64,000 bases of DNA from Thermodesulfobacteriota bacterium (GCA_965116725.1 OZ220700.1:628923-692922), one strand, 5' to 3'. Shown: positions 5,044-27,761, numbered from the stretch's first letter. A program made the numbers and translations. Notes: generated from the sequence alone by a model not told the origin.

Positions 5044-5081
5044 AAAAAAGGGGTGTCCTTCGAAAAGGCACCCCTTTTTTT
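5044..5081. terminator. Bidirectional rho-independent terminator between glnA and tRNA-Leu
   Basis: A6-GGGGTGTCCTT-cgaa-AAGGCACCCC-T7. The 10-bp GC-rich stem is flanked by an A-run and a T-run. Confidence 0.8.
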
Positions 5082-5087
5082 ATGCTC

Positions 5088-5172
5088 TGCCGAAGGGGGG
5101 AGTCGAACCCCCACGGGCGCAATGCCCACAGGATCCTGAATCCTGCGCGTCTGCCTATTCCGCCACTTCGGC
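5088..5172 (-). tRNA. tRNA-Leu (anticodon CAG), type II with long variable arm
   Basis: The reverse complement folds as GCCGAAG acceptor / CAGGA-TTCAGGA-TCCTG anticodon arm / GGGGG-TTCGACT-CCCCC T-arm. Discriminator A. No encoded CCA. Confidence 0.85.
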
Positions 5173-5174
5173 TT

Positions 5175-6266
5175 TTATCTTTCTCTCCAAGACGCCACGG
5201 TCGGATACGAATTTTTCTTTTTCAAGTTTTTACGGATAACGGCCTGAACCTGTCTTGTGACGGGAATTTGCTCTCCCACTATACCCGTGGAAATAGCGGT
5301 GTAGACATCGCTTTTTCCACCCTTAAGAACCACTCCCGAAATGCCGGAGCTTATCTTTAGACTGGAATCTATTCCCTTTAAGATTTTCGTGGTCTCGCTG
5401 GCAGATATGACTCTCTTGGTGCTCCTGCGAAGAATTATCTCGTCGGCCATTCTCCCGACTAAGCTGTCTTTTATCTCCCGGGGATCGTTCTGCCTCTCGT
5501 TGACCGAGACCCCCGCAGCCTTAATGGTAGCCATTATCACTGTTTTTGAAGCGGTGCTGAAATTCACCTTCTTGTCCTCAGGATATACGGTGAGATAGTC
5601 TTTGACTTGGAGAAAGAAATCCTTATCCATCCCCTCAATCATCCTAATTTCCTCAACGCTGTCAAGCGGTCCGTCCTTGATATAATAAGGATTATCGAGT
5701 TTTGCGTAATAGTTCCCACCAGCTCCATCGGGGTCCTGATCGTTTCCGCTACCCGGCGCCGCCCCGTCAAGCCAGTTCACTAGACTTGCCACGAAGAGAT
5801 CGGCCTTCTCCGTCTCCACCCCGAGAAAGCGGAAAAGTTCATTTAGCTGCGTTCGGACCTGAAAATCCACCCGGCCCGATCTCTGGTCCACAAGAGCATT
5901 GAGATTGACCTTCGATCTCTCGTCTACAACTTGAAGAGATATGTTTCCTTCTCCGATGGGAAAAGAAATAATGGAAAGCTTCCAGCCGTTGGAACCGTTT
6001 TCTGAGCTTATTGCCTGCCCAAGGATTCCCTGCAGCAAGGGCAGATCCTCTGGCGTTTTCTTTCTCAGCACCCCTCGCACGACTCTCACTCCTGATTTCG
6101 CAATATGTCTTGCCTGGACATCGCTTGAGCTGTTCGCGGAAATTTCGTAACTCACGCGGGTCGAGTATATGAAATCAATCACGATTGTGGAAAGTATTGC
6201 AATCGTTATGACAACGATAACAAGTACTATTCCCTTCTGCGTTGTTTTCGGATCTGCTCTGCACAT
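5175..6266 (-). CDS. gspK: T2SS minor pseudopilin GspK-like
   Basis: 363 aa. N-terminal hydrophobic segment KGIVLVIVVITIAIL lacks the conserved Glu5, which is typical of GspK. It is the last gene after gspG-H-I-J, and its size matches GspK. Confidence 0.55.
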   Translation of the reverse strand: MCRADPKTTQKGIVLVIVVITIAILSTIVIDFIYSTRVSYEISANSSSDVQARHIAKSGVRVVRGVLRKKTPEDLPLLQGILGQAISSENGSNGWKLSIISFPIGEGNISLQVVDERSKVNLNALVDQRSGRVDFQVRTQLNELFRFLGVETEKADLFVASLVNWLDGAAPGSGNDQDPDGAGGNYYAKLDNPYYIKDGPLDSVEEIRMIEGMDKDFFLQVKDYLTVYPEDKKVNFSTASKTVIMATIKAAGVSVNERQNDPREIKDSLVGRMADEIILRRSTKRVISASETTKILKGIDSSLKISSGISGVVLKGGKSDVYTAISTGIVGEQIPVTRQVQAVIRKNLKKKNSYPTVASWRER

Positions 6267-6941
6267 TCAGTCAGCCACCGGTATAGCAACAATCATGGAA
6301 TAAGCCTCCTCCTGATCCCCTGCTCCCAAAAGAATGATATGGACTTGAACCGCCTTTGGAAATCCTCGCATTACTGACGAATTCCACTCCCACACCTCTT
6401 GCTCGTTAGCCGATGCCGGGGATCGTTCGGAAAGGAAATTCACCCTGAAACTCAGCACCCTTTCCGAAATCGGATATGCGGCTCCAGCCTCATCGTTTCC
6501 GATCCAGTAATTATCCTTTCTCATAAGGGCAAACATATCTTCGCGCTCGCCGCGGAGCGGAACCAGATAGTAGGAGATCTCGCTCTGGCCGGATTGGGTG
6601 GAATAATGGGTGGGGTCCTTCGCAAAAGAGGTGAACACTATTCTGCTGTTATCCCCTTCGAGCCTCCCGGTAAAGTAGCTATATGCGGAAGGAGAAGAAA
6701 CCCCGGAATTGATGTTCCCTCTGGGAAAAGCATTCACTAGGTCATGGCGCATCTTAAGCAGGATAGTATTCGCTTCCTGGATCAATTCGTTTTCCGTCTC
6801 CACCCTGCGTTTGACTGTTATGAGCTGGGAAAAGGAACTGTAGAGCATCGTGAGCACGATGACCGTTATGGCAACGACGATAAGAACCTCTATAAGGGTG
6901 AAACCGCTTTTATCATCCCGAATCGACGAAGCTGATTTCAT
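6267..6941 (-). CDS. gspJ: T2SS minor pseudopilin GspJ-like
   Basis: 224 aa. Prepilin leader + GFTLIEVLIVVAI class III signal. Position and size fit GspJ. Confidence 0.55.
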   Translation of the reverse strand: MKSASSIRDDKSGFTLIEVLIVVAITVIVLTMLYSSFSQLITVKRRVETENELIQEANTILLKMRHDLVNAFPRGNINSGVSSPSAYSYFTGRLEGDNSRIVFTSFAKDPTHYSTQSGQSEISYYLVPLRGEREDMFALMRKDNYWIGNDEAGAAYPISERVLSFRVNFLSERSPASANEQEVWEWNSSVMRGFPKAVQVHIILLGAGDQEEAYSMIVAIPVAD

Positions 6942-7287
6942 AGCTTTCCTCCCCGTCGTCCCAGGTTATAAGAACACTGATAATGGTCATCTTCGCTTCG
7001 AATTGGGTTAAGTTGTAGGGGGAAACTGTGAGATACCACTCAAAACCGGGATAATTTTCAAATTTCCCGCTTCTCTTCGAGTCCGACGTGAGCCCTTCAG
7101 CGTCGATCCGTGAAGCCATGTCGTCGGCCAGACTTGTGGCTATCAGGTAATTGGTAGACCTTGTAGCAAGATTTACATTGTGACCTACAATGCCGAGGAT
7201 TGACACCATCGCGAAGGCAAGTAACCCCACGGCAACCATGACTTCGAGCAACGTAAATCCGCAAATGCTGTTTTTCGAGGCTCTCAT
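6913..7287 (-). CDS. gspI: T2SS minor pseudopilin GspI-like
   Basis: 124 aa. GFTLLEVMVAV prepilin N-terminus. Size and position fit GspI. Confidence 0.55.
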   Translation of the reverse strand: MRASKNSICGFTLLEVMVAVGLLAFAMVSILGIVGHNVNLATRSTNYLIATSLADDMASRIDAEGLTSDSKRSGKFENYPGFEWYLTVSPYNLTQFEAKMTIISVLITWDDGEESYEISFVDSG

Positions 7288-7299
7288 ACAGTTCTTTCC

Positions 7300-7833
7300 C
7301 TACCGTTCCGCCAGATTCTGAAACCGGCTGTTAAATTCGACGTACTCGTCAAAAATCTTAGTGGCCCCAGTGTAGGGGTTTGTGGAGAGCGTGAAAAAAT
7401 TGTCCTCACCAGTTCGCAGGTGAATAACCGCCGAGTCAACAATCCCCGTCGGCAGAAAAAGTATAAATGCGTCTCTTCCGGAACCAATCTTCCCTTGGGT
7501 TCTCTCCGTCTGTATATCGCTGAAAAAAACCCCGCTGGGGAGCTTTCTGAATCCAGACGCGGAATCCTCTTCCAAGCGGAACTGGTTTTCCTCAAGAAAT
7601 TCTGCCCAGTATTCTCCGGTATCGATATCGAAAGAAAGCTTGTATATCCGTTTTTCAAAAATGGCTTTGCTGTAAATATGCCTTATCGTAGTGACAAGCC
7701 CTCTTGAAGCACTGCGAAGGTTCATGTCACCCGTTTTGAGGACTCTGGGCATGGCTACGGAGAAAAAAGCTCCGAGCAGAAAAACGACCACAATGAGTTC
7801 AATTAAGGTAAAACCAGCGGATTTTTTTCTCAT
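7300..7833 (-). CDS. gspH: T2SS minor pseudopilin GspH-like
   Basis: 177 aa. GFTLIELIVVV prepilin N-terminus. Position after gspG. Confidence 0.5.
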   Translation of the reverse strand: MRKKSAGFTLIELIVVVFLLGAFFSVAMPRVLKTGDMNLRSASRGLVTTIRHIYSKAIFEKRIYKLSFDIDTGEYWAEFLEENQFRLEEDSASGFRKLPSGVFFSDIQTERTQGKIGSGRDAFILFLPTGIVDSAVIHLRTGEDNFFTLSTNPYTGATKIFDEYVEFNSRFQNLAER

Positions 7834-8249
7834 CTGTCTCTGTTGGACAGATCATCGTCTGAATTCCCTATCCCATCCGGACCGTTAGACCTTATATAGT
7901 ACAATCCGTCCTCGGTCTGGTCGACCCCGAAGTACACAAACTCGTTCCCCCAAGGATCAAGTGGAACGCTTGCGGATTCAAGATAACGTCTCCACCTCTT
8001 GGCCTCCCTGCCCACCGTTACCGGTTCGACCAGAACACGTAGCCCCTGCTGGGTTTCAGGATAAAAACCGTTATCAAACTTAAACAGCTGGAGCGCCTGC
8101 TCAAACTGTTTGATCTGAATCATGGCCTGTTTTTCCTTTGCCCTCTCCCCCTGACCTATCACGTTCGTTCCCACTATGTAGGCGAGTCCCGCTATGATAA
8201 GCACGACCACCATAATTTCAATCAGAGTAAACCCCATCTGGGATCTCAT
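7830..8249 (-). CDS. gspG: T2SS major pseudopilin GspG
   Basis: 139 aa. MGFTLIEIMVVVLIIAGLA plus the conserved GspG core (VPLDPWGNEFVY...YIRSNGPDG). Confidence 0.85.
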   Translation of the reverse strand: MRSQMGFTLIEIMVVVLIIAGLAYIVGTNVIGQGERAKEKQAMIQIKQFEQALQLFKFDNGFYPETQQGLRVLVEPVTVGREAKRWRRYLESASVPLDPWGNEFVYFGVDQTEDGLYYIRSNGPDGIGNSDDDLSNRDR

Positions 8250-8267
8250 TTTTCTCTACCTCCCTGT

Positions 8268-9476
8268 TCAGCTTATTACAGAAGTTAGATTCAACACAGG
8301 TAAAAGTATAGCAAAAACTATAAAACCCATCACGACGCCCATAATCAGTATCATTACCGGCTCAAGAAGGGAAGTCAGCGTGGCAAGCATGCCGTCGACC
8401 TCGGTATCATACATATCGGCCACTTTCGACAGCATGACTTCCATTTTACCCGCCTCTTCCCCTACAGACACCATTCTCACCATTAGGGGAGGGAAAATCC
8501 CGGTCTGCCCAAGGCAACCTCCGAACGCCGCTCCCTCTGCAACCTTGACCCGGACATCCCTTATATTGTCAACATAAAGACTGTTTCCCATAACCGATTC
8601 GCTCACCCTGATGGATTCAAGAAGAGGAATGCCACTTGAAAGTAGCGTGGCAAGCGTTCTTGTGAAACGGGAAATCATCACTTTTGAAGACATTTTCCCG
8701 AACACTGGGATCCTCAGGGAAAACCTGTCGTAGACCTTCCTTCCGGAAGGAGTTTTTACGTACCTGTGTCCAAAAAATAATACGACGGCCAAGAAAACCA
8801 GCAGAAAGACAAAATTCTCCCTGAGAAAATCACTTGCACCTATAAGCATTACGGTAACAAACGGCAAAGCCTTGTTGCTGGCCTCGAATATATCGGCGAC
8901 TTTGGGAATTACGAAAGTCATCATGAAAACCAGTACCCCGAGTCCGACGATAAACATTATCGCCGGATATATCATGGCACCTCTGATCTTCGAAGTCAGC
9001 TCGAGCTGTTTTTCAAGGAAATCTGCAAGACGGTCGAGCACGACATCAAGAGTGCCGCTAGCCTCGCCGGCACGAACCATGCTCACGTAAAGATCAGAGA
9101 AAGCTCCTTCGTGCTCCTCAAGTGCGGCGTGAAGAGAGCTGCCTTCACTCACTCGGCTTCGCACCTGAGAGAGAATTCCCTTGAGCTTCTGGTCATCAGT
9201 CTGCTCGTAGAGGGCCACAAGTGAGGTCTCAAGAGGAAGGCCTGATGAGATCAGGGTTGAGAACTGTCTTGTCATAACGGCAAGTTCCGAGATGCTCACC
9301 CTGTTCCACGGAAGGCTCACCGACGAGCGGCGAGATCCACTGGCCTCTTTTATAGAGGAAAGATAGATGCCGCCTTTTCTGAGCCTGTCGCTTGCGATCT
9401 TGACCGATTCCGCGCTGATAACTCCCTTTACCGATTCGCCCTTGTCGTTGATGGCTTTATAGTTATAAACAGGCAT
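8268..9476 (-). CDS. gspF: T2SS inner-membrane platform protein GspF
   Basis: GspF/PilC family. Two repeated cytoplasmic domains and three TM segments. The start was taken at the internal Met MPVYNYKAI, which is the typical GspF N-terminus; this avoids overlap with gspE. Confidence 0.85.
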   Translation of the reverse strand: MPVYNYKAINDKGESVKGVISAESVKIASDRLRKGGIYLSSIKEASGSRRSSVSLPWNRVSISELAVMTRQFSTLISSGLPLETSLVALYEQTDDQKLKGILSQVRSRVSEGSSLHAALEEHEGAFSDLYVSMVRAGEASGTLDVVLDRLADFLEKQLELTSKIRGAMIYPAIMFIVGLGVLVFMMTFVIPKVADIFEASNKALPFVTVMLIGASDFLRENFVFLLVFLAVVLFFGHRYVKTPSGRKVYDRFSLRIPVFGKMSSKVMISRFTRTLATLLSSGIPLLESIRVSESVMGNSLYVDNIRDVRVKVAEGAAFGGCLGQTGIFPPLMVRMVSVGEEAGKMEVMLSKVADMYDTEVDGMLATLTSLLEPVMILIMGVVMGFIVFAILLPVLNLTSVIS

Positions 9477-9507
9477 TTGAAATACCGATGTTAAAGATAG
9501 CTGCGGT

Positions 9508-11190
9508 CTAGCTCTCCGCCAGTTCCTCTTCCGTAACCCTGAGCACTTCGTCAATTGACGTTATGCCTTTTGCAACTTTGTCGGCACCGTCCATTCTAAG
9601 GGTAATGAGTCCGTTTCTCAGGGCATTTTCCTTAAGCGTTGAAGAATCTGGGTGTGTAAGAATAGTGTTTTTGAGTTCATCATCGATAAGCAGTATCTCA
9701 AAAATCGCTATTCTTCCCGAAAATCCCGTCTCCATGCACTCTTGGCATCCCTTGGCTCTGTATATCTTTCCTTCTGGACAGGCCTCGCGAGCAAGTCCTA
9801 TACGACCGATCTCCTCATCAATCGGCACGTACTGTTCTCTGCACTGCGTGCAAAGAATCCTGACAAGCCTCTGAGCTATGACCGCAGAGAGGGTAGAAGC
9901 TATAAGAAAGGACTCTACCCCCATATCGGCAAGCCTGGTCACGGCGCTTACCGAGTCATTGGTATGCAGCGTGGAAAACACGAGATGCCCAGTGAGTGAA
10001 GCGTTCATGGAAATATCGGCAGTTTCCCTGTCCCTTATTTCCCCGACTAGTATAACGTCGGGATCCTGCCTGAGTATTGAGCGAAGTCCGTTTGCGAACG
10101 TAAGATCGACCTTGGTGTTGACTTGGATCTGGTTAATTCCCTGTATCTGGTATTCAACCGGGTCTTCTATAGTGATTATTTTCTTGTCGGGAAGATTGAT
10201 TCTCTGCAGGGCAGCATAGAGGCTTGTTGTCTTTCCGCTTCCCGTGGGTCCCGTAACGAGAATGATCCCGTGAGGACGTTTGATAAGGGATTCCACCGTC
10301 TCGAGTTTTTTTCCTTCAAGACCCAGCTGCTCGAAGCTCATCAGCACCGAAGACCTGTAAAGCAGCCTCATTACCACGCTCTCTCCCCATGAGGTCGGAA
10401 CCGTCGAAACCCTTACATCGATATCCCTTCCTCCGATCTTCAGCCTTATGCTTCCGTCCTGAGGCTTTCTTCTCTCGGCTATATCAAGTTCAGACATGAT
10501 CTTCACACGTGAGATCACCGAAGACTGCACTGTTTTCGGAACTTTCGTCACGTCGTGAAGAATGCCGTCCTTTCTGAACCGTACCAGCACTTCTTTTTCG
10601 AAACACTCTATGTGAATATCGCTTGCGTGCTCCCTTACCGCCTGAAAAAGAAGCGTGTTTATGAATTTTATGATCGGAGCTTCATCTTCAGCCTCAATCA
10701 GATCCTGGGGCTCGGTAAACTCCATGTCGGAGAGTCCCGAACCTTCGTTTATATCCTCTGACACAACATCTTTGCCCTGCTCGTAGACCCTGTTAATGCT
10801 GTCGGTCAGCACGCGTTCAAGGGTAATGTAAGTTTCTAGCGAGCAGTTAAAGCGGGAGCGAACCTCGTCAAGAGCATAGAGCTCCTGAGGCGGGGCGAAT
10901 ACGACTTTGAGCGTTCCGTTATCCTTGCTTATTGGGAGTATTCTGAACCTCTTCGCGAAGCTGATCGGAAACTGTTTTATCAGTTCATAATCTATATCGT
11001 CTTCGGGAATCGATTCGACTTTTTCGACTCCGTAAAACTCGGAAAGAACATCTAGAGCCGGGGAGTCTTTAAGTACGTCAGTTTTGAGCAGTATGTCTTC
11101 TGTATTCCGACCGTTCTTCCCTTTAAGCTCTTCAATTCTCCCCATAACCTCGGGGTAACGCCTGCCTATTATTTCGTCAAGAGCCTTCAT
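9508..11190 (-). CDS. gspE: T2SS ATPase GspE
   Basis: 560 aa. Walker [10 protein letters not shown]. The Asp box, His box and tetracysteine motif (CTQC...CQEC) are typical of GspE/PilB secretion ATPases. Confidence 0.9.
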   Translation of the reverse strand: MKALDEIIGRRYPEVMGRIEELKGKNGRNTEDILLKTDVLKDSPALDVLSEFYGVEKVESIPEDDIDYELIKQFPISFAKRFRILPISKDNGTLKVVFAPPQELYALDEVRSRFNCSLETYITLERVLTDSINRVYEQGKDVVSEDINEGSGLSDMEFTEPQDLIEAEDEAPIIKFINTLLFQAVREHASDIHIECFEKEVLVRFRKDGILHDVTKVPKTVQSSVISRVKIMSELDIAERRKPQDGSIRLKIGGRDIDVRVSTVPTSWGESVVMRLLYRSSVLMSFEQLGLEGKKLETVESLIKRPHGIILVTGPTGSGKTTSLYAALQRINLPDKKIITIEDPVEYQIQGINQIQVNTKVDLTFANGLRSILRQDPDVILVGEIRDRETADISMNASLTGHLVFSTLHTNDSVSAVTRLADMGVESFLIASTLSAVIAQRLVRILCTQCREQYVPIDEEIGRIGLAREACPEGKIYRAKGCQECMETGFSGRIAIFEILLIDDELKNTILTHPDSSTLKENALRNGLITLRMDGADKVAKGITSIDEVLRVTEEELAES

Positions 11191-11205
11191 TTTCTAAAAA
11201 CTTCC

Positions 11206-13701
11206 CTACTCAAGCGTATTCAGGTCCCTTCTATGAAGCAAGGTCTTTCTTCTCTGGTAATCCGTAAGCAACTGCTTCATATCGCTTTCCGTCTCAACTA
11301 TCCGCGGGGTAAGAAGTATCATCAGGTTAAGCTTCCTGTTCTGATTGCGCTTGAACCTGAACAGGTTTCCAATTAGCGGAATATCTCCGAGCAGAGGTGT
11401 TTTGTTGTGAAGAACCTCTTCTCTGTCCTGAACCAACCCACCTATAACGAGGGTCTGCCCATTTTTGACTATAACCGACGAATCGGCACTTCTTGTTGTA
11501 GTCGCAATGCCGAACTGGGCGGTGTTAAGTCCCGCCGGCGCCTCTCGGGTAGAGGAAACCTCGGTCACTATGTCAAGGTTAAGGTATTCTCCTTCGCTTA
11601 TCTGAGGGGTGATGCTGAGCCTTATTCCTACCGGCAATCTCTCGATTGTCTGAACTGTCACGCCGCTTGTTCCCACAGTGCTGCCCATCGGAAACGGTAT
11701 TACGTCAGCCACCACTATCTCGGCCGGTTCGTTGTCGGTTGTAATAATGCTCGGGGTTGAAAGAACATTGACGTCGGTCACGGAACTCAGCGCCTGAAAC
11801 ACCGCGGAGAACGAAGGAAGAGACGGAAGCGGACCCGAACCGTCGGGGTCAACTTCCTCTCCCACCACTCCGAGAAAGAGCCCCGAGAGACTGCCTATGG
11901 AAGCAGTTGCAATTGTGGGATCAGCCGCAACTCCGAGAAGACTTGGGATGCCCGGCAGCTGCTGTCCGAGAAAACCTAGGTTATCGCCCTCGATTGTAAC
12001 GCCGAGACCGAAATTGGTTCCCAGCGCATTAAGGTTATCAAGACCCACCTCGAGTATGGCAGCTTCCACGAACACCTGCCTTCTCCTTACGTCAAGCTTA
12101 TCCACTATCTGCTTGACCATTCTGTATTGCGTGAGAGAACCGATCACTATGATGGAATTTGTCGCCGGATCCGAAGTTATCTTAAGCCCATCGCCCGAAG
12201 ACACTATGACGGAAGCGCCGGTCTGCTCGTTCCCTCCCCTCTGGATGTTCCCGCCCTGGGAACCTAAGCCACCAACATTTCCGCTGCCACCCCCTTTCCC
12301 CTCTCCGAGACGGCTTGAAGGCTGGCCGGTTCTGCCGGATTGCCGCGCCTGATCCCGATAGGAAACTGAAGACACTGCACCCCCTTTCCCCTCCGTGAAC
12401 AGATTTCCCAGAACTTCGATTATCTGCTCAGCGTCGGCGTTTTTAACCGGTATAACGTAAACGTCCTGTTCCGCGTGCTCGCTCTCGATATCCAAAACAG
12501 CGATCGTCTCCTTTATCAGGGGAAGATCCCTTGGGTCAGCAATCACTATTATGGAATTTGTCCTCTCGTCGTTTATCACTTTAAACCCTAATAGCTCAGA
12601 ACTTCCAGATATGAGACCGTCGTTCTTGCCTTTTGACGGCTTGGTCTTGGCGCTTTTAGGATTGAAGATCTCAAGCAGCTTAAAAATAACGTTGGCCGAG
12701 TTTGTGTTATGCACTTTGATGAACTCTATTTTCTTCTCGTAATCAATATTCGCAATCACTTCGGCTATCTTGTTCACGTTCTGTTCATTATCAACCACAA
12801 CTAGGGTATTCGACGGTTGGTGAGCCTTCATAAACCCATCCTTGCTAACCAGAGCTCGAAGGACGTTGGAAATTCCCTTGGCTTTTACGCTCTTAAGCTT
12901 TATCAGCTTCATCACGTATTTCTGGGAAGACTCCGCAGGGTCGAAATCCAGTCTTAACGGTATGCTCTCTGACTTTATCCCCTTTTTAGGGACGACCTTG
13001 TTAACTCCTTCCGCGCTTATGACCGAGTATCCGTTCATATCAAGAAGTATTTCAAAAATTCTAAACGCATTCTCTCTCTCGAAACCGCCCTCGGGAGTTA
13101 TGATCGTCACATTCTTGTCCCTGATCTTGTCACTCAGGAGATAAACCTCGGAGGTGATCTCGCTTATGGTCTTTACCATCTCATTAAGCGTCATGTTGGA
13201 GCGAAGGTTAACCATCCCCTCGTCCTCGGGAATTTCTTCACCCTCTTCACCGAGAGCTTCATCGCCTGAGACCGCAACTGTTTCCTCAGGCTTCTTCGTC
13301 TCCAGCTCAGGAGCCTTCTCAACTTCGGCCGCAACTTCTTCCTCCGCTAAATCGAGCGGTAGACCGGGGTCCTCGACCAGTCCTTCAAGAGTCTCGTCGC
13401 CAGAAACTTTCACCGCATCTTTTCCGAGAGGCCTTAAGTCTTGCTTGCCCGGATCCTTTGCGGCCTCCTCGGCCAGCAACTCCGCAGCTTCCTTGGCAAT
13501 ATCAGTGGGTTCCGCGGGTGAATCCTCGCCGTTCGCTTTTTCAAGCCTTGTGCCAGGGGCGACAACAACCTTGGCCCTTGTAAGATCCGGAAGCGGCTCG
13601 GACTTCTCTGCAGGAGCCAACTGGGGACAGAGAACGGAAGCGGAAAAAACGAGAACCGCTGACAGAACTGGGAAAAGATTTTTATTCAGAAAGTATTTCA
13701 T
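11206..13701 (-). CDS. gspD: T2SS secretin GspD, with long acidic N-terminal extension and an internal Gly-rich insert
   Basis: Secretin C-domain (VIVKNGQTLVIGGLV, IPLIGNLFRFK). N0/N1-type domains. The signal peptide is taken from the internal Met MKYFLNK..SASVLC. About 100 aa of an acidic, low-complexity segment follows the signal peptide. Confidence 0.85.
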   Translation of the reverse strand: MKYFLNKNLFPVLSAVLVFSASVLCPQLAPAEKSEPLPDLTRAKVVVAPGTRLEKANGEDSPAEPTDIAKEAAELLAEEAAKDPGKQDLRPLGKDAVKVSGDETLEGLVEDPGLPLDLAEEEVAAEVEKAPELETKKPEETVAVSGDEALGEEGEEIPEDEGMVNLRSNMTLNEMVKTISEITSEVYLLSDKIRDKNVTIITPEGGFERENAFRIFEILLDMNGYSVISAEGVNKVVPKKGIKSESIPLRLDFDPAESSQKYVMKLIKLKSVKAKGISNVLRALVSKDGFMKAHQPSNTLVVVDNEQNVNKIAEVIANIDYEKKIEFIKVHNTNSANVIFKLLEIFNPKSAKTKPSKGKNDGLISGSSELLGFKVINDERTNSIIVIADPRDLPLIKETIAVLDIESEHAEQDVYVIPVKNADAEQIIEVLGNLFTEGKGGAVSSVSYRDQARQSGRTGQPSSRLGEGKGGGSGNVGGLGSQGGNIQRGGNEQTGASVIVSSGDGLKITSDPATNSIIVIGSLTQYRMVKQIVDKLDVRRRQVFVEAAILEVGLDNLNALGTNFGLGVTIEGDNLGFLGQQLPGIPSLLGVAADPTIATASIGSLSGLFLGVVGEEVDPDGSGPLPSLPSFSAVFQALSSVTDVNVLSTPSIITTDNEPAEIVVADVIPFPMGSTVGTSGVTVQTIERLPVGIRLSITPQISEGEYLNLDIVTEVSSTREAPAGLNTAQFGIATTTRSADSSVIVKNGQTLVIGGLVQDREEVLHNKTPLLGDIPLIGNLFRFKRNQNRKLNLMILLTPRIVETESDMKQLLTDYQRRKTLLHRRDLNTLE

Positions 13702-13744
13702 AATCTGTTTTAACCTTAAGAAACTGAATTTTTTTGTATTAGGC

Positions 13745-14692
13745 CTAGTAAACCGTGTACCGGTTACTCTTTCTTTTACCTCGTCTCGTGAAATCAACGG
13801 TAAACTCACTCTGGCCCCTCAAGTCGGTAAAAAGCGAAAGAGCGCTCTGCACATCGTTTAAAGCAACTTCATTTATCTGGTGAACTATATCCCCGTTTCT
13901 AAGACCCATTTTATAAAACACGCTCCGGCTTCTCACCCCGAAGATCTTGATACCGTCATCGCGCGGCACAATCTTAGCCTCGGTTATTAAACTGCTGGGT
14001 TCAGCGAGCAGTTCTTCAAACATTACTCTTTCTATCTGGTATAAGCCCTCGCTGACCTTGCTGACCCCTGAAGCCGACGACTTTTTTGACTTGACAGACG
14101 GTCTGTTCCTTACTGAAGAACTCGCGGGGCTTTTTGCAAAAACGGATTCAAGCTCGTTTCCGCAGGTAATCAATTCGGGACCTTCCGCTCTTCGTATAGT
14201 CACTTCGCAGTCGTCTATTTTCACTACCTCTACTTTTTCGGATGTTACAAGATCAACCAACTGCCCTTCAGAATAACCCTTTATTTTGCTATTTTCCATA
14301 TTCTTTATCACGGCGATGCTCTTGTTGGCCGCAGAATTAGTGCGGCTTTTGAGTATGAAAGTTCCAAGAAGTTCAAGCTTGAGGGAAGTTTTCGGGGTAA
14401 CCTCCCCCTCGAAAACTTCCGAGAAACCACCCGTCTCTATCTGTCCAGCATAACCGCCCGTTCCAAACAGGTTTGTTCTCAGTATAGAGTCGTAGTACTC
14501 TCTTGAACGATAGGGAATCTTAACCTGTCCGTACTTCTCCTTGTAGAGATGTTCACCTGTCAGACCTCCCTTGTCGGACTCTATCTTGTCGCGCAGGCCG
14601 TTGTTGATCGTGGCCGAAACCGAGTACGCAATGGCGACTATCAACAAGACGTTTACGACCCAAACATACTTTCTTAAAACGAGCAAAACCAT
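13745..14692 (-). CDS. gspC: Putative GspC (N-terminal TM anchor + C-terminal PDZ domain)
   Basis: 315 aa. A single N-terminal TM helix. C-terminal PDZ-like segment (GLRNGDIVHQINEVALNDVQSALSLF). It is the first gene of the gsp operon, the usual GspC position. Confidence 0.5.
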   Translation of the reverse strand: MVLLVLRKYVWVVNVLLIVAIAYSVSATINNGLRDKIESDKGGLTGEHLYKEKYGQVKIPYRSREYYDSILRTNLFGTGGYAGQIETGGFSEVFEGEVTPKTSLKLELLGTFILKSRTNSAANKSIAVIKNMENSKIKGYSEGQLVDLVTSEKVEVVKIDDCEVTIRRAEGPELITCGNELESVFAKSPASSSVRNRPSVKSKKSSASGVSKVSEGLYQIERVMFEELLAEPSSLITEAKIVPRDDGIKIFGVRSRSVFYKMGLRNGDIVHQINEVALNDVQSALSLFTDLRGQSEFTVDFTRRGKRKSNRYTVY

Positions 14693-14837
14693 AGTCGATT
14701 CCTTAAATTAATCCTATATAATTTAATAGAATGCCTTATTTTTTCAACATTCCTACCGCTGCGGAGACGTAGTTTAAGAAAAGCTCGCAATTCTGAATCG
14801 ATACCCCGCAACGATTTTTTAAATATCCGTGCAATGT

Positions 14838-16004
14838 TCACTCACTTCGTTCTGTTTCCCCTGCCGGAGCAACGACAGGAAAGTTTTCAAGCACGGAACA
14901 AAAATACCGCTTTTCAAGATCATATATATCAAAAGCCAGTTCCGAGGCACGCTCGAATCCCTCTCCGCATGAAGCGCTCTCGCTTATCTCCTTGAAAAGC
15001 ATTCCCATGTCGTACCACTTCTGACCAATACTGTTCATCTCGTTGGGAAGTTTCGCCCCGTAAAAAGTGGAAAGCACCGGGGAGACTTCCTCGAGAAAAT
15101 CCCTGTAAAACCACCTGAAAGCAGCGCCGCAGACCCCTCTTCTGCATATGACCTGGTAAGTAAACCTAGAGGTCCACTTCCAGTCGGCAAGATCCCCCCA
15201 GCCAGGGAGATCCTCGGCCCATTTCCTTATAATCTCAACGCCTGAAGTCCCTCTTAGAGTGGTCTTGCCTTCAAGCATCATCTCGGCGTTTTTTCTCACG
15301 GCACCGAGAATCATCTCCTCAGCACCGAAGCCATTTTCAAGGAACCTTACTTCAACACAGTTGTTGGAAAGGGGATACGGCCTTGCTTTTGAGCTTCTCG
15401 CCTTCGCCATGTTCTCAAAAGAGACAGTCTGGAGATCTTCAAACGAATTGTCCGCCACGTAAAAAACGGATTCGGAGTCGTCGTATCCGCATACCGCTAT
15501 TATGTGCCCGGGGAAATGGGTCTTGGAGTCAAAGTATTCAAGGTAGCAGATATCGGCCTGTATCAACACCGGAACATCCATGTCAATAAACTCCCTGAGG
15601 TCATTCGAGGCCCGCTCGTTGTCGTCCTCGTACTTCCAGTCGGTGACATCGACACCGAAACTTCTCAGGAAATTAATTTCCATCAAGGGACCGCGAGGCT
15701 GTATAATCCTGCTCGGATTCATTCCCTCTTCACGGGAGTAATAAAAACCGAGACCGGCTCCCAGCCCGAAACACATCTGCTCCGAGAGATCGTGCCCGTA
15801 GTAGAGGCATATATCTCTCAGCGCCGCGGAACCGCAGTGCACCCCTTTTAAGTGTTTCCAGCCATTTATTATTCTCTTCATAAGAAGCCGCAGAACCGAG
15901 GAAATTAATATAGCCGGAAATCGATATTCCTTAAAGACCCAGGAATACTCATCACCTAGGGAAGCCTTCTTGATCATTGCGTCAGAACGGATATTAGTAA
16001 TCAT
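14838..16004 (-). CDS. C39-like papain-fold protein (BtrH N-terminal domain family) with a C-terminal domain of unknown function
   Basis: Cys motif VHCGSAALRDICLYYG, and His/Asp further along (GHIIAVCGYDDSE). This resembles peptidase C39/BtrH_N. No signal peptide. The start was moved to an internal Met to avoid overlap with the divergent gene. Confidence 0.4.
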   Translation of the reverse strand: MITNIRSDAMIKKASLGDEYSWVFKEYRFPAILISSVLRLLMKRIINGWKHLKGVHCGSAALRDICLYYGHDLSEQMCFGLGAGLGFYYSREEGMNPSRIIQPRGPLMEINFLRSFGVDVTDWKYEDDNERASNDLREFIDMDVPVLIQADICYLEYFDSKTHFPGHIIAVCGYDDSESVFYVADNSFEDLQTVSFENMAKARSSKARPYPLSNNCVEVRFLENGFGAEEMILGAVRKNAEMMLEGKTTLRGTSGVEIIRKWAEDLPGWGDLADWKWTSRFTYQVICRRGVCGAAFRWFYRDFLEEVSPVLSTFYGAKLPNEMNSIGQKWYDMGMLFKEISESASCGEGFERASELAFDIYDLEKRYFCSVLENFPVVAPAGETERSE

Positions 16005-16022
16005 CGCCACGGATAAACCAGC

Positions 16023-16964
16023 ATGCTTGAGAAAATCCTTAAAAATTCGAAAAAGGCTATTCTGCTCGGAATAGGAGGAGGAGGCGATATAGTCGGAACC
16101 CTTCCGACGGCAAACCTGCTCGAGATAAACGGAACGCAATGCGTTCTGGGTGGGCTTAGCTGGGAGCGCTTCACAATAGACCCCGATCCAGGGCCCAGAA
16201 AGCTTGAAGAATCACGCAATGTCCGCGAGATAAACGACGTGGTCTGGAAATGCAACAAAGATTCCACCACCCGAGGCGGAGCGAGGTTTGCCGAGGCAGG
16301 CATGGCCGAAGTTCTGGGAGAGGAAACTCTTCTTGTCGATATAAGTTACGGTCCGGAGAAGGTTTTTGAGGGAATAACGGACGCCGCCGAAAAACTCGGC
16401 GCAGATCTAGTGGTGGGAATAGACGTCGGCGGAGACGTGCTTGGATTCGGAGACGAAGAGGGACTCATGAGTCCGCTTGCCGACGCCATAATGACCGCGG
16501 CGCTTTACAGACAGAGTTTCCGGATGCCTACCGTAATGGGAGTATTCGGTTTCGGAAGCGACGGAGAACTCTCCAAAGAAGAACTTGAGAGGTCATTCGG
16601 CATCATAGCACGGAACAATGGAATTCTCGGGAGCTGGGGCATATCTGCAACCACACTGGAATTAATGGAAAAAGCGATAAGCATAATACCCACCGAGGCG
16701 AGCAGAGGGCCCGTTGAATACGCAAAAGGAGTTTTCAGCACCACTTCAATAAGAGACGGCAGAAGAAAAGTCGAACTCGATATAAGTTCCACAGTAACTT
16801 TCTACATAGATCCCCGGGTGGTTTACGAAAAGGTGTCAAGACCCGCGCAAGCGGTCTACGGGTGCAGAACGATAGGGGAGGCAAACTCAAAGCTTAACGA
16901 AGCGGGAATCAGAACGGAGCTTGATATTGAAATGGAGCTTTACGAAAATCTCGGGAAAAACTAA
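16023..16964 (+). CDS. DUF1152-like conserved hypothetical protein with an N-terminal Gly-rich loop
   Basis: 313 aa. N-terminal LLGIGGGGDIVG motif and a second glycine-rich loop (VGIDVGGDVLGFGD). The family is of unknown function. Confidence 0.45.
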   Translation: MLEKILKNSKKAILLGIGGGGDIVGTLPTANLLEINGTQCVLGGLSWERFTIDPDPGPRKLEESRNVREINDVVWKCNKDSTTRGGARFAEAGMAEVLGEETLLVDISYGPEKVFEGITDAAEKLGADLVVGIDVGGDVLGFGDEEGLMSPLADAIMTAALYRQSFRMPTVMGVFGFGSDGELSKEELERSFGIIARNNGILGSWGISATTLELMEKAISIIPTEASRGPVEYAKGVFSTTSIRDGRRKVELDISSTVTFYIDPRVVYEKVSRPAQAVYGCRTIGEANSKLNEAGIRTELDIEMELYENLGKN

Positions 16965-19437: not shown

Positions 19438-21732
19438 CTATGACCTGTTCCGGTAGGTCAGCTGCACACCGAAGGTTCTGCCTTTGGAGAGCGGCGCGAA
19501 CGAACCTCCCCCGAGGGAGGGGTGGAGATCAACATAGCTTCCGTGTTTAACTTGGTCAAGAAGGTTCTTTCCGTAAAATCCGATTGAGAACCTACCGTTC
19601 ATTGGAGTGATATCAATTCCAGCGTCAACAACTTTCTGCTCTGGAGTATATCCTTTGTTGTCATCTGTAAGGTATAACTTGCTGCGATACGAGTAGCTTA
19701 CCCTTGAAGTCAATTTCGCCCAGTTCGCAAGTCCGGCATCATGGGTCGCGCCGAAGCTCCAAGTCCACTTTGCGGCCCGGGGAAGCTGTAAAGCTAGGTC
19801 TTTTACGTCAAGAGTGCCGTCTCGATTAAGATCATGTTTTACTTTAGTGTACTCGGGATCTACGTATCCGACGAAACCCAGAAGAAAAAGTTTCTCGGTA
19901 ACGGCGATCAGGCCGTCAAATTCAAAGCCGAAGGCTTCTACATCCGCAGTGTTGCGAATCTCCTCGGCTATGCCGCCCAAGGCCACGGATTCTGGAAGAG
20001 TTATCACCCTCTGCACATCATCGATCAGGTTATAGAAAACCGCACCGTTCAGGATGCCTATGTTTGTTGATAACTTGAATCCTGCCTCGAAGGTATCGAT
20101 CTTTTCTTCATCGTACGGTCCCGGGCGTTCCACCTCTGGGGCATAGGTATTGCGCAGATTATAGCCTCCAGAGCGGTATCCTCTGGTCCAGTGTCCGTAA
20201 ACGTTCGCTTCAAAGTTCGCTCCGCCGTCTAGATAGTAGGCAACGCCGAGCTTGGGCGACCAACTGTTCCAGGTCTCTTCGTCGGTGAAATCAAGCGGGC
20301 ATGCGGGTCCGGTCGCGAAGTTGCATGGCATTCCCCCGCTGGCTGTAGCGGGGGCGGAGGATGTCTCAGCCTCTCTCTTTTCATAGCCGTAACGGGTGCC
20401 CGCGGTAAGCATTATCTGATCCGTAAGATCGTAATCAAAAGAGAGAAATACACCTAGCGTATCAACGTAATAATTCCCTCCCAAGTCTTGGATAATAGCT
20501 CCTCCTAACAGATAACGGCGGTCATGATAATTTATCTCGTTTGTAAAGTAATAAAAACCGGTCGTCGCGTGGAGACTTTCGAAGAATCTGCCCGCGTAGC
20601 GCAGTTCGTTGCTCCACTGACGGTAGGGGGTCCATCCACGTATATTCAAAAGGTTTTGCGACGAAGAATCGATATCAAGCAAAGCGGACCCGTCCGCGTC
20701 GTAAAGGCCAAATATGTTCGTTATGGTGCCATCTCCGAAACCCACATCCCAATTCACCTGAGCGGAGAAAAAGTGATTTCTATGCTCCCTGAAGCCTTCC
20801 TCGTCGATGCTGAAATCATGACTATTAATATTGAAGTCGCGCTGGTTCTGTCCCGGGGAGCCATCGCTTTCCGAATTCTCGTACCGGTAGCGCAGAACAA
20901 GGCTTACGTCATCCGTTGGATTCCACGTAATAACCGATCGTACCATTCGTGTGTCGTTCTCTCCGTAAGCCTCGCCCGTGTGGAGATTCTTAAACCAGCC
21001 GTTATCCTGATTTGTGTACGCACTTATCTTTACGCCGATGGTCTCGCTAATAGGGCCTCCGATTGTGCCCATATAATAGCTGTTAAGACTCTCGCCTCCT
21101 CCTTCAAACGTAGTGCGGGCCGATATCTCAAGAGCATCTCCCGGTTTTTTCGTGTTAACCAGTATGGCGCCCCCCGTGACATTACGGCCGAAAAGTGTTC
21201 CCTGCGGCCCCCTCAGCACCTCCATGCTTTCAATATCGAAGGTATCAAACAAAACGATGGTTGTCTGCCCTAGGTACACGCCGTCGACAAACACTCCCAC
21301 GGTTGGATCAACAGACGCTATGGAGCTGTTTATTCCGACACCGCGGATGGAAAAGTTGGCTATTGCCATTCCCGAGATGGAATCGTCAAGTGCCACATTG
21401 GGCATGCTCGCTGATAGACTTTCAAGATCGTTTACCTTCAAAGCCTCAATCTTTTCGGAACTGAAATGGGTGATCGCCAGGGGAACGTTCTGAATCAGCT
21501 CTTCTCGTTTTCGGGCGGTGACCGTGATTTTTTTGAGAAGTACGCCGCTTACCCCAAACAAACTCTGTGCAGCTGCCTCATCGTCTTGTGCAGCTGCGTC
21601 ACCGCTGCCGAGCGACGCCAGGAGTACACCTGCGAGAAACAGGCTCAAAAACCCCTTCACTGCAGACTGAAATTTTCCTCTAATTATTTTGATACCCTCC
21701 TTTCTCCGGGAGATTATAACATAATCCTGCAC
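19438..21732 (-). CDS. TonB-dependent outer-membrane receptor
   Basis: 764 aa. Signal peptide. Plug-domain motif (MEVLRGPQGTLFGRNVTGGAILVNTK). Long beta-barrel. Confidence 0.85.
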   Translation of the reverse strand: MQDYVIISRRKEGIKIIRGKFQSAVKGFLSLFLAGVLLASLGSGDAAAQDDEAAAQSLFGVSGVLLKKITVTARKREELIQNVPLAITHFSSEKIEALKVNDLESLSASMPNVALDDSISGMAIANFSIRGVGINSSIASVDPTVGVFVDGVYLGQTTIVLFDTFDIESMEVLRGPQGTLFGRNVTGGAILVNTKKPGDALEISARTTFEGGGESLNSYYMGTIGGPISETIGVKISAYTNQDNGWFKNLHTGEAYGENDTRMVRSVITWNPTDDVSLVLRYRYENSESDGSPGQNQRDFNINSHDFSIDEEGFREHRNHFFSAQVNWDVGFGDGTITNIFGLYDADGSALLDIDSSSQNLLNIRGWTPYRQWSNELRYAGRFFESLHATTGFYYFTNEINYHDRRYLLGGAIIQDLGGNYYVDTLGVFLSFDYDLTDQIMLTAGTRYGYEKREAETSSAPATASGGMPCNFATGPACPLDFTDEETWNSWSPKLGVAYYLDGGANFEANVYGHWTRGYRSGGYNLRNTYAPEVERPGPYDEEKIDTFEAGFKLSTNIGILNGAVFYNLIDDVQRVITLPESVALGGIAEEIRNTADVEAFGFEFDGLIAVTEKLFLLGFVGYVDPEYTKVKHDLNRDGTLDVKDLALQLPRAAKWTWSFGATHDAGLANWAKLTSRVSYSYRSKLYLTDDNKGYTPEQKVVDAGIDITPMNGRFSIGFYGKNLLDQVKHGSYVDLHPSLGGGSFAPLSKGRTFGVQLTYRNRS

Positions 21733-25541: not shown

Positions 25542-27476
25542 TTACGAATGTTTTTCCCGGTATACGTAATTTCGTGCAAACAAAGAAAAGGCAAGGACAA
25601 GAAGGACAGCTTGGGGGATCGCGGTCTCATAAGAGGGATATATCCCGAGGGTATCCATGTAAGGAATGAAATCCGCCGTAGTTGAAGAAATAATTCCCGC
25701 CTCCTGGAGTTCAAGTATTCCCTTGCCAAGAAGTATGAAACAAAGCAAATAGAGGAAAACGCTCGTGAAGGAAAAGAAGTATTTAAGAGGAATCCTGAGG
25801 GTAAACCTGTACATAAGAAAGGCTATTACGAACACGACCGCCACTCCCGCAACAAGTCCATAGATCACGTGCGGCGTGGATGAACCGGTCTGGAAGAAAA
25901 GTGCCTGGTAAAAAAGCATCGTCTCGAAAGCCTCCCTGTAGACGGCAAGAAACGAAACGAAAGCAAGGGTAAGACCGCTTCTGCGTGTAAGCGCGCCCTG
26001 GGTCTTCGAGCGGACGTATTCCTTCCATTTTTTTACGTCCGCTTTTGAGACAAGCCAGTAACTTACGTAAAAAAGAATCGCTGCTGCCAGAAGAGAAGTC
26101 ACTCCTTCCACAATCTCCCTTCTAGCCCCCGAGATATCTATTATGGTTCTTGCCGCAACCCACGTCGCCAGTCCCGCAAAGATGGCGAGCACCCACCCGT
26201 AGTGAACGTACCTGATCATCCCGCGGTTACCTGAATGCGCCAAAGCGGCGATAATGGCCGCGATTATAAGCAGAGCCTCAAGCGCTTCTCTGAGTATTAT
26301 GGCAAAGGAATTAACAAAACTGAGGTATTTGCCGAGCGATGAGCCGCCTTGTAGGATGCGTTCCGACTCGCGAAGATCCTCCTCTATGCTAGCTTTCAGA
26401 TCATGAAGCTCGGAGGAATCCCGGTCGGACATCACTAATGACCTGAAAAATCCTATTTTTTTCTCAACCTCAAGAACAAGCGGTCTTTTTTTCGATACCA
26501 AGGCAGGTTCGATTCTCTGAAACCCTCCCAAGTACCCGTCGAGAGCCTCCTTGAAAGCCTCATCCTTTCTACCGGCCTCGTAAAGATCGATGGCCTCTTC
26601 AAGCTTCCTCAGGGTATGGGCTATAGCTTCGGATGCACCTCCAGCAATTCCATCCCGAAGATAAGCGGTTCTCAGGTAAAAAAGAACTTCCTCGTCACTG
26701 CCCCCGGCTCCGGCATTAAGAAGAATCTCCGCATTGCTAGCTAGGGCAAGGTTTTCAAGCTTTCTTACATCATGGGAAATATTCTCCGTGGAGAGCCCAG
26801 AAGTACCTCCGCCTGAGGGAATATCCGGATACCCAAGCGAGAGAACGTAAAACGCCACATCCCATTTCTGTTTTTCGTCAAGCACTTTTTCGAACGAGGT
26901 CATGGCGGTACCTTCGATCCCGAAAGTGGTGGTGTTGTAAACTTTAAAGGGTGAGAGCCCGAGATTTATATCAGGATCTGTGAAATCCGTGGGAGGAGGA
27001 TTGAGGGTCTTAGAGAAAGCATCGTCCGGCCTTCCTGAGAGCCCATGACAGGAGGAACAGTTCCTTACGTAAAGCTCTTTTCCGCTTTCGTAATCGGGTA
27101 TATTCGCCGGATAGGGTTTGATGGCATAGGCTGAAATGATCCGCCCCTTCAGTTCACCTGCAAGGCTTTCCACTTCGGAGACGGGTCCCTTGGATACTAC
27201 AATTGAGTGCAGACGTGCGAATTTTTCGGAAAAATCAGTTGTTCCTTCTCTCTTTTCACCCGTTTTTTCCCACAGGTCAACCGCTATGGAAGAAAAATCC
27301 AGCATTTCCTGATACTCAAATTCGTTTATGATCTCCCCTTCTTTTACGGCATTTGCGTAATCTCCTCCTATGTAATCGACAAGAGAGAGGATCCTGTCTA
27401 TCTCTGCGGCATAAGAGAATGCGGGAAAAAGAAAAAATATGAGAACTGACAAACAGAAGAAACTTTTTTTAAGCAT
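25542..27476 (-). CDS. Cytochrome c / FTR1-family high-affinity iron permease fusion
   Basis: Signal peptide. Periplasmic domain with a single CSSCHG haem-binding motif. The C-terminal polytopic domain has two RExxE motifs (REALEAL, REAFETM) diagnostic of FTR1/EfeU. Confidence 0.8.
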   Translation of the reverse strand: MLKKSFFCLSVLIFFLFPAFSYAAEIDRILSLVDYIGGDYANAVKEGEIINEFEYQEMLDFSSIAVDLWEKTGEKREGTTDFSEKFARLHSIVVSKGPVSEVESLAGELKGRIISAYAIKPYPANIPDYESGKELYVRNCSSCHGLSGRPDDAFSKTLNPPPTDFTDPDINLGLSPFKVYNTTTFGIEGTAMTSFEKVLDEKQKWDVAFYVLSLGYPDIPSGGGTSGLSTENISHDVRKLENLALASNAEILLNAGAGGSDEEVLFYLRTAYLRDGIAGGASEAIAHTLRKLEEAIDLYEAGRKDEAFKEALDGYLGGFQRIEPALVSKKRPLVLEVEKKIGFFRSLVMSDRDSSELHDLKASIEEDLRESERILQGGSSLGKYLSFVNSFAIILREALEALLIIAAIIAALAHSGNRGMIRYVHYGWVLAIFAGLATWVAARTIIDISGARREIVEGVTSLLAAAILFYVSYWLVSKADVKKWKEYVRSKTQGALTRRSGLTLAFVSFLAVYREAFETMLFYQALFFQTGSSTPHVIYGLVAGVAVVFVIAFLMYRFTLRIPLKYFFSFTSVFLYLLCFILLGKGILELQEAGIISSTTADFIPYMDTLGIYPSYETAIPQAVLLVLAFSLFARNYVYREKHS

Positions 27477-27691
27477 AGTCCGCGGACATCTCCCCATCTT
27501 GGGGGTCAGGGAAGGTACTTTTTACCATTCTAGACCTTTATTGTCAATAATTCTCATTGTCGTTATTTTCACCTTTCTAAATGGTTCCGGGAAGAAAATC
27601 AGACGGGTAATTTCGCTGATTTTCTTGTCTGTAAATATTTTTTAAAAAATTCTTGACATCCTAACTCCAGAATGTTATTAATCTGCGTCAT

Positions 27692-27706
27692 GGATATCAA
27701 ATATCC
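27692..27706. promoter_or_regulatory. Perfect inverted repeat GGATAT-CAA-ATATCC in the divergent FTR1/porin intergenic region (candidate operator)
   Basis: The AT-rich dyad lies about 55 nt upstream of the porin ATG. A second Fur-box-like AT-rich stretch (TTGTCAATAATTCTCATTGTCGTTATTTT) is at about 27541-27570. Confidence 0.35.
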
Positions 27707-27761
27707 ATAATATCTATTAATTGCGCAACCCTAAAAGGTAGTAAAAGGAGGATGTCAACAG

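Follow-up and report, generated by a model that had tools for sequence, protein, structure and literature searches.

How does a type II secretion system (T2SS) work from an operon that ends at gspK and carries no gene for GspL or GspM, which are regarded as core parts of the inner-membrane platform (GspL anchors and regulates the ATPase, and both proteins contact pseudopilins and substrates)? The question is raised by a stretch of DNA of 64,000 nucleotides (nt) deposited under the name Thermodesulfobacteriota bacterium (GCA_965116725.1 OZ220700.1:628923-692922; the whole stretch is called the window below), in which an initial annotation had described a compact gspCDEFGHIJK operon lacking gspL, gspM, gspN and gspO and abutting a tRNA-Leu gene. 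We find that the nine genes are intact, that they are conserved throughout the phylum Candidatus Dadabacteria, and that gspL, gspM and gspN are missing next to the operon in the entire set of related loci. The reading that we favour, as probable rather than secure, is that of a functional T2SS core operon, with dedicated L/M-like genes encoded elsewhere in the genome.

Nine intact genes of a T2SS core operon

The minus strand from 14692 to 5175 is filled by nine consecutive intact open reading frames (ORFs), and their family matches bear out the proposed order gspC-D-E-F-G-H-I-J-K. The operon and its boundaries comprise the following features (a slash within a peptide marks the prepilin cleavage position):

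14720..14747, minus strand: sigma-70-like promoter candidate, TTGAAA-N16-TAAATT (consensus scan only)
13745..14692, minus strand: gspC, 315 amino acids (aa), with an N-terminal transmembrane (TM) helix, an HR-like beta-sandwich and a C-terminal PDZ domain
11206..13701, minus strand: gspD, secretin, 831 aa from the ATG at 13701 (longest ORF to 13809)
9508..11190, minus strand: gspE, assembly ATPase, 560 aa, with a full MshEN-type N-terminal domain
8268..9476, minus strand: gspF, inner-membrane platform protein, 402 aa (longest ORF to 9554)
7830..8249, minus strand: gspG, major pseudopilin, 139 aa, MRSQMG/FTLIE
7300..7833, minus strand: gspH, minor pseudopilin, 177 aa, G/FTLIE, positioned as in canonical operons
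6913..7287, minus strand: gspI, minor pseudopilin, 124 aa, G/FTLLE
6267..6941, minus strand: gspJ, minor pseudopilin, 224 aa, G/FTLIE
5175..6266, minus strand: gspK, tip pseudopilin, 363 aa, KG/IVLVI, no Glu5
5088..5172, minus strand: tRNA-Leu(CAG), found by ARAGORN, 2 nt past the gspK stop
5044..5081, either strand: bidirectional intrinsic terminator between tRNA-Leu and the convergent glnA (stop at 5027), read from the sequence

With corrected starts, the intergenic spacers from gspC to gspK measure 43, 15, 31, 18, −4, 12, −29 and 0 nt. The corrections concern gspD and gspF, for which the gene calls of relatives were followed (gspD of 831 and 841 aa); judged by these, gspD most likely starts at 13701, with the signal peptide MKYFLNK..., and gspF at 9476, so that the apparent overlaps between C and D and between E and F vanish. 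The gspC ATG begins 28 nt downstream of the promoter candidate, and AAGGAA can be made out as a ribosome-binding site. At the distal end, the direct adjacency of gspK and tRNA-Leu(CAG) was correctly noted at the outset, whereas the spacer is 2 nt rather than 3 nt, the gspK stop codon ending at 5175. No hairpin was found in the 2-nt spacer region between the two genes, and the tRNA is probably co-transcribed with the gsp operon. The terminator (5081-5044) has the form A7-GGGGTGCCTT-TTCG-AAGGACACCCC-T6; it was not picked up by a pattern scan, probably owing to a one-base bulge in the stem.

Families were assigned using NCBIfam models with their curated cut-offs, together with Pfam. The four components outside the pseudopilin series that the initial annotation named (a PDZ-containing GspC, GspD, GspE and GspF) all pass NCBIfam cut-offs: GspC matches the equivalog NF041515 (GspC_delta) with 155 bits (cut-off 150), GspD matches TIGR02517 with 452 bits (cut-off 351), GspE matches TIGR02533 with 682 bits (cut-off 630) and GspF matches TIGR02120 with 442 bits (cut-off 424). 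The same holds for GspG (TIGR01710, 118 bits, cut-off 89). In Pfam, GspC shows PDZ_2 and a weak T2SSC match, GspD shows type_II_gspD_N0, three Secretin_N and Secretin domains, GspF has two T2SSF domains, and GspG matches T2SSG. The remaining pseudopilins score below the NCBIfam cut-offs, with best matches to the gspH model for GspH (26.6 bits), to XpsI and gspI (40 and 37 bits, ahead of PilV) for GspI, to gspJ TIGR01711 over residues 13-205 for GspJ (25.5 bits), and to NF037980 for GspK (123 bits, cut-off 130). The N_methyl motif is recognized in GspH and GspJ, Pfam T2SSJ matches the GspJ orthologues of relatives, and Pfam T2SSK_1st matches GspK above its cut-off. A class III prepilin N-terminus, G-FTL(I/L)E, had been ascribed to all five pseudopilins; this is accurate for G, H, I and J, but not for GspK, the N-terminus of which reads ...QKG/IVLVIVV and has no F1/E5 motif. 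The absence of Glu5 is normal in GspK.

Structure models of the 315-aa and 363-aa proteins, which had been suggested as a check, point to a GspC-type PDZ protein and a GspK fold, respectively. The AlphaFold2 model of GspC consists of a helix (residues 2-41), strands (106-177) and a PDZ domain (210-314) that matches the PDZ domains of EpsC (2i4s) and PulC (5hj1) in Foldseek. In the case of GspK (pLDDT 82, pTM 0.80), the top matches in the PDB extend over the whole chain and are XcpX (6utu_C, 5vtm_X) and GspK of enterotoxigenic Escherichia coli (ETEC; 3ci0_K), with a probability of 1.0 and target TM-scores of 0.76-0.83; the model shows the large alpha-domain fold that is specific to T2SS tip pseudopilins. 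Together with the NCBIfam best matches, these structural matches group the G-K proteins with the T2SS and not with the minor pilins of type IVa pili (T4aP), the outcome that would have spoken against the initial annotation.

Taken together, the locus encodes a GspD with N0 and N1-N3 domains, GspE and GspF, GspG with H-I-J-K, and GspC, i.e. the features by which a T2SS is recognized. The T4aP models are not passed: GspE reaches 585 bits with the PilB model (cut-off 675), the PilQ model scores 166 (cut-off 284), the PilC models score at most 370 (cut-off 700), and neither PilT nor PilMNOP is present in the window, the search for a PilT-like retraction ATPase covering the Pfam-scanned ORFs.

Two components deserve further comment. 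Over residues 74-559, GspE shares 47% identity with its E. coli counterpart, and its residues 1-188 match best the N-termini of PilB (3jc8, 4.9e-17; also 5tsg), followed by EpsE (4pht) and XpsE (2d28). This MshEN/N1E-type domain is complete and without gaps in 67/67 orthologues, with an entropy of 1.08 compared to 1.3-1.5 in the minor pseudopilins, and is thus less conserved than the catalytic core but more so than the pseudopilins. GspD of the window contains an acidic, low-complexity stretch rich in Glu, Ala and Pro between the signal peptide and N0; in deep clades (L003 2182-5025; L004 1767-4511; loci are cited by L numbers), GspD carries an N-terminal LysM (peptidoglycan-binding) domain instead. 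Neither a pilotin gene nor a GspD S-domain is evident in the window.

Conservation in Dadabacteria and the search for gspL, gspM, gspN and gspO

The proteins closest to those of the window come from Candidatus Dadabacteria (for which NCBI also uses the label Thermodesulfobacteriota). The best named match is a metagenome-assembled genome (MAG) of the sponge Rhopaloeides, at 97% identity, and a GspC identical to that of the window occurs on a 1.54-Mb contig. By protein similarity, then, the source organism is a member of Candidatus Dadabacteria, an assignment that is new here. Dadabacteria GspK forms a discrete group: when 1.84 billion cluster representatives were searched by profile, some six full-length clusters at the 50% level scored above 390 bits, and the next matches, Nitrospirota GspK among them, reached at most 180 bits.

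The comparison of operon layout across the clade comprised 82 loci, 77 of them from a GspK-profile scan (one genome per species) and five from exact-protein look-ups, whose six-frame ORFs were re-labelled by BLASTP. The order CDEFGHIJK on one strand was recovered in 64 of the 82 loci, the other 18 being cut by contig ends or, in one case, affected by a frameshift artefact. L, M or N was found beside the operon in none of the 82 (flanks of 10 kb per side where the contig allows), and the downstream neighbours vary by clade and are all of unrelated identity. Across the phylum, GspK identity falls to 40%, whereas conservation remains high in the GspE core and the secretin domain; such strong conservation of the catalytic and pore-forming parts, despite the divergence of GspK, argues for a working machine.

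The claim that the 64 kb encode no GspL, GspM, GspN or GspO is upheld by two types of search. Among 38 other ORFs of the window (at least 130 aa, picked by hand as likely genes), Pfam recognized no T2SSL, GspL_C, T2SSM, PilM, PilN, PilO, T2SSN or Peptidase_A24; the ORFs at 1-696 and 730-2175 are covered only by the precomputed annotation of a relative (L001). Searches with L/M/N/O seeds (hmmsearch and phmmer) against all six-frame ORFs of at least 50 aa in the window and the 82 loci gave no match either, but this is a weak test since the seeds of three lineages detect each other at only 8-25 bits, and the absence calls rest mainly on Pfam and NCBIfam and on the other known functions of the neighbouring genes. 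Within these bounds (the window and fetched flanks of up to 10 kb per side in 82 related genomes), GspL and GspM were not encountered at the locus, and no Peptidase_A24, the family of GspO/PilD, was present in the window or the 82 loci. Given that G, H, I and J carry the prepilin cleavage motif and that there is no A24 peptidase at the locus, at least one needed gene must lie elsewhere. The prepilin peptidase of a T2SS is often encoded apart from the other genes and serves additional systems as well (PMC6617341; PMC6668835).

Several ORFs were considered as hidden L or M genes and rejected. In the window, 29188-29739 encodes a signal-peptide protein beside ApbE with a faint RnfG-like tail, 29760-30257 encodes a polytopic protein, 39528-39932 is probably no gene, and the product of 27762-29075 resembles an outer-membrane barrel. 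Among the relatives, the neighbours in L042 and L046 are TolQ/TolR/TolA, that in L036 is HflK/HflC-like, a 383-aa neighbour is a RavA/MoxR-like AAA+ protein, and other operon neighbours are Sel/RND pumps, SufBCD and restriction-modification genes. GspC was likewise dismissed as a substitute for L or M, its model containing neither a ferredoxin-like nor an actin-like domain. The plasmid pIAE1 of Trichlorobacter lovleyi, examined as a source of L and M, has only gspC and a gspD fragment, interrupted by transposases.

Among the closest known systems, that of Trichlorobacter ammonificans (OW150024.1, L090; Geobacteraceae) has the same C-D-E-F-G-H-I-J-K order; as in the window, its GspC contains T2SSC and PDZ domains and its GspE begins with an MshEN domain; the GspC_delta model passed by the window protein is the one NCBI uses for the Geobacteraceae type. 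Sequence identity to Geobacteraceae is nevertheless low, in that only the PDZ region of GspC matched a plasmid-borne Trichlorobacter GspC (tblastn, 32%). In T. ammonificans, gspK is followed by gspL (438 aa, TIGR01709, 120 bits), a 184-aa gene and a Leptospira-type gspN (TIGR04411, 91 bits), whereas the Dadabacteria operon ends at gspK. Because the Geobacteraceae cluster continues as K-L-M-N, the Dadabacteria operon corresponds to the first nine genes of a 12-gene Geobacteraceae-type arrangement from which L-M-N has been removed or moved. Neither Pfam nor NCBIfam models match the 184-aa gene (L090 19823-20377), which occupies the gspM position and is flanked by gspL and gspN; a gene in this position that is invisible to the models limits automated calls of GspM absence.

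Nitrospiraceae (L083-L085) possess the same genes from E through K, and Nitrospirota GspK is the nearest outside the clade. Unlike in Dadabacteria, L, M and N lie inside the Nitrospiraceae cluster (E-F-G-H-I-J-N-L-M-K), where L is a PilM-like half fused to GspL_C, M matches Pfam T2SSM and N belongs to the Leptospira type. The gammaproteobacterial Xcp (Pseudomonas aeruginosa) and Etp/Gsp (E. coli) clusters (L086, L087) show the same pseudopilin gene order, and their XcpX and ETEC GspK share the GspK fold, but these clusters go on with L and M, and Etp also with an A24 peptidase and a pilotin, none of which is evident here. Legionella pneumophila, also a gammaproteobacterium, distributes its Lsp genes over several loci: lspFGHIJK ends at K, and lspLM and pilD (lspO) are at separate loci, the best precedent for L and M in trans (PMC6617341). 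However, Legionella also splits off C and DE, and its L and M are known, whereas those of Dadabacteria were not found at the locus.

Partners in trans, a reduced system or a shared platform

By analogy with the canonical T2SS, GspD would form the outer-membrane pore, to which GspC, through its TM segment, HR domain and PDZ domain, would connect the inner membrane; the GspE ATPase, acting on the GspF platform, would polymerize GspG into a short pseudopilus that is primed by the H-I-J-K tip complex and that would drive folded periplasmic proteins out via GspD. The operon transcript would run from the promoter upstream of gspC to the terminator just past tRNA-Leu(CAG), and the prepilin peptidase and, most likely, GspL/M-like (possibly PilM-like) platform proteins would be supplied from other loci. 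Three observations are suggestive of such partners in trans. A prepilin peptidase is needed yet missing from the locus. The N-terminal docking domain of GspE is retained, with no deletions in any of the 67 orthologues, and in Vibrio the N-terminal domain of EpsE docks on the cytoplasmic part of GspL (PMC10128026). Finally, Legionella spreads its T2SS genes over separate loci.

Several points weigh against partners in trans. An L/M-like gene of Dadabacteria was seen neither in the window nor in the 82 loci, and the flanks in the 82 genomes contain unrelated genes only (glnA, restriction-modification genes, the RavA-like ATPase, TolQRA, HflKC, SufBCD and RND pumps), so that, if L and M exist, their separation from the operon dates back to the base of the phylum. 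Operon-bearing Dadabacteria MAGs score 7-8 of the 13 T2SS KEGG orthologues (KOs) in KEGG-Decoder (PMC8115339, supplementary file 3), and two hot-spring MAGs (GCA_003696525.1 and GCA_003695505.1) score 10/13; the supplementary tables of Graham & Tully give pathway fractions and no KO lists, and the low scores are compatible with L and M going unrecognized in most MAGs. The N-terminal domain of GspE, by its best matches, appears nearer to PilB than to the short N1 of EpsE and does not prove that its partner is GspL.

The initial annotation had framed the choice as one between L and M encoded elsewhere and a reduced system in which the PDZ protein takes a GspC/PilP-like role. This framing is the right one; the PDZ protein itself is a plain GspC with no L/M-like domain. 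That gspL, gspM and gspN have been lost, and that GspE, GspF and GspC alone build the pseudopilus at the inner membrane, an assumption also made for the T2SS-derived machines of chlamydiae and mitochondria, appears rather unlikely to us; we equally doubt that the phylum Dadabacteria combines a full pseudopilus, GspC and secretin with no GspL/M/N genome-wide. A reduction would agree with the 0/82 loci with linked L/M/N phylum-wide where the nearest sampled outgroups, namely Nitrospirota (with the closest GspK outside the clade) and one Geobacteraceae genome, do have these genes in the cluster, and with the KEGG-Decoder score of at most 8/13 in operon-bearing MAGs. It also has precedents in the chlamydial T2SS, reported to lack GspL/M (PMC6668835), and in the mitochondrial T2SS-derived system, reported to lack GspC, L and M (PMC10128026). 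However, the chlamydial system, apparently chimeric, is also devoid of minor pseudopilins, whereas Dadabacteria keep H-I-J-K along with the GspC that the mitochondrial system is missing; with the Chlamydia-type or 'generic' reduced T2SS (Denise et al. 2019, PMC6668835), the locus has only the missing L and M in common. The retention of the GspE docking domain also speaks against a reduction, the prepilin peptidase shows that needed parts sit elsewhere anyway, and GspM-type proteins evade the models even in Geobacteraceae, so that non-detection says little. Moreover, as far as we know, no other member of the T4aP, MSH and T2SS branch is without PilM/N/O or GspL/M homologues, which counts against loss.

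A platform shared with a T4aP, whose PilM, PilN and PilO would fill the role of L and M without dedicated gspL and gspM, seems quite improbable. The proximity of the GspE N-terminal domain to T4aP PilB (3jc8, 5tsg) and the PilM-type N-terminal half of Nitrospiraceae GspL (PilM_2, 97 bits; TIGR01175, 123 bits), which indicates that L is still near PilM in these lineages, are in line with sharing, as is the documented sharing of PilD between T2SS and type IV pili (PMC6617341), but neither the window nor ~1.7 Mb of related loci yielded a T4aP gene. We know of no demonstration that PilMNO is shared between a T2SS and a T4aP, and this also counts against it. Very improbable, in turn, is a decaying remnant or a surface pilus in place of a secretion system, to which only the missing L/M/N would point: the nine ORFs are intact, their order is invariant in the 64 complete loci, the catalytic and pore domains are conserved, and no widespread frameshifts are seen among the relatives; GspD, E, F and G pass the T2SS equivalog cut-offs while the scores with the PilB, PilC and PilQ models stay below the cut-offs of those models, GspC is present, and the large alpha-domain fold of GspK is T2SS-specific. 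We therefore return to a functional core operon with its L/M-like partners at other loci as the reading to be preferred, albeit with moderate confidence.

Operon neighbours, cargo leads and implications

The 2-nt junction between gspK and tRNA-Leu(CAG) is found in every locus of the window's clade (GspK identity of at least 67%); in the next clade, 5-10 nt separate the two genes. The tRNA of several deeper clades instead follows the gene for the 383-aa RavA/MoxR-like AAA+ protein, the start of which overlaps the gspK stop by 16 nt (L003 11101-12255; also L036, L040, L075 and ~40 other loci). This overlap suggests translational coupling, and the protein, which is ~70% identical across clades where GspK is only ~45% identical, is possibly a T2SS accessory; in the deep-branching clades, the ATPase might give an accessory function to a T2SS free of L/M/N. 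The window contains no homologue of the gene. Since the deeper clades have the RavA-like gene and the window has none, the present junction looks like the product of its loss.

Beyond the tRNA, islands are inserted before glnA in some relatives: Mrr, SLFN/AlbA_2, HsdM, a nucleotidyltransferase and HsdS in L002 and L031 (L002 11092-19300), HsdM/HsdS in L034 (11086-15700), and a 759-aa surface protein in L027 (11095-14025); L021 is a further locus of this kind. Differing islands past tRNA-Leu(CAG) look like, and are typical of, a tRNA integration hotspot. On the other side of the operon, a BtrH_N/DUF4872 protein is encoded directly upstream of gspC on the same strand (14838-16139, minus strand); its best NCBIfam match, the DarH acyltransferase, is below the cut-off. 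Beside it lies a divergent DUF1152 gene (16023-16964, plus strand), and conservation of the pair at this position is confined to the window's clade. The two genes overlap in their longest ORFs and the BtrH_N/DUF4872 protein has 347-388 aa in relatives, so its start is probably later than that of the longest ORF.

With respect to cargo, the M16 peptidase and the SNase nuclease proposed as candidates have nothing to recommend them beyond the signal peptide that each carries, and no evidence of linkage to the operon was found. Near the gsp operon of relatives, there are three proteins of 737-958 aa with a C-terminal GGC(A/S)L motif, a TM segment and a basic tail; none of the NCBIfam sorting-signal models recognizes any of the three tails. 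These proteins and a protease of the window are:

L027 11746-14025, plus strand: GGC(A/S)L-tail protein, MYXO-CTERM-like tail
L030 18701-20914, minus strand: GGC(A/S)L-tail protein, MYXO-CTERM-like tail
L035 14145-17021, plus strand: GGC(A/S)L-tail protein, MYXO-CTERM-like tail
56160-56765 of the window, plus strand: Rce1-like (CPBP) intramembrane protease, 201 aa

Seven of the eight best NCBIfam matches of the protease are myxosortase-type models, all below their cut-offs (MrtP, 78 bits; Mrt_core, 73 bits, cut-off 100; also MrtS and MrtC). Myxococcus proteins with C-terminal signals of such a Cys-containing type depend on the T2SS for their transport to the cell surface (bioRxiv 10.1101/2023.06.07.544157). 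As a weak lead, the Rce1-like protease may process Cys-containing C-terminal signals of T2SS-dependent surface proteins.

Elsewhere in the window, the genes at 25542-31247 may form an iron or flavin module. One of them (25542-27497) encodes a fusion of an FTR1 permease with a cytochrome c domain; the other products are an outer-membrane protein resembling a porin (27762-29075), a protein with a signal peptide and a tail that faintly matches RnfG/FMN-binding domains (29188-29739), a small membrane protein of polytopic topology (29760-30257) and the flavin transferase ApbE (30270-31247). A TonB-dependent receptor is encoded at 19438-21732.

Much of this locus is a solid, conserved and unsurprising annotation; the single feature that sets it apart, a lack of linked L/M/N extending across the phylum, is genuine. 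What is new is the invariant C-K order in Dadabacteria with no linked L/M/N, as opposed to K-L-M-N or N-L-M-K outside the phylum. If L and M are supplied in trans, the T2SS genes of this phylum underwent an ancient split into separate loci, and to tools such as TXSScan or the KEGG modules such genomes will appear incomplete. If L and M are truly absent, Dadabacteria would constitute a natural test of the dispensability of the platform; a genome-wide lack of L/M/N would make the platform dispensable in a free-living or symbiotic bacterium and the system a bacterial counterpart of the minimal mitochondrial T2SS. Since abundant sponge symbionts belong to this phylum, a functional T2SS would also bear on their interaction with the host.

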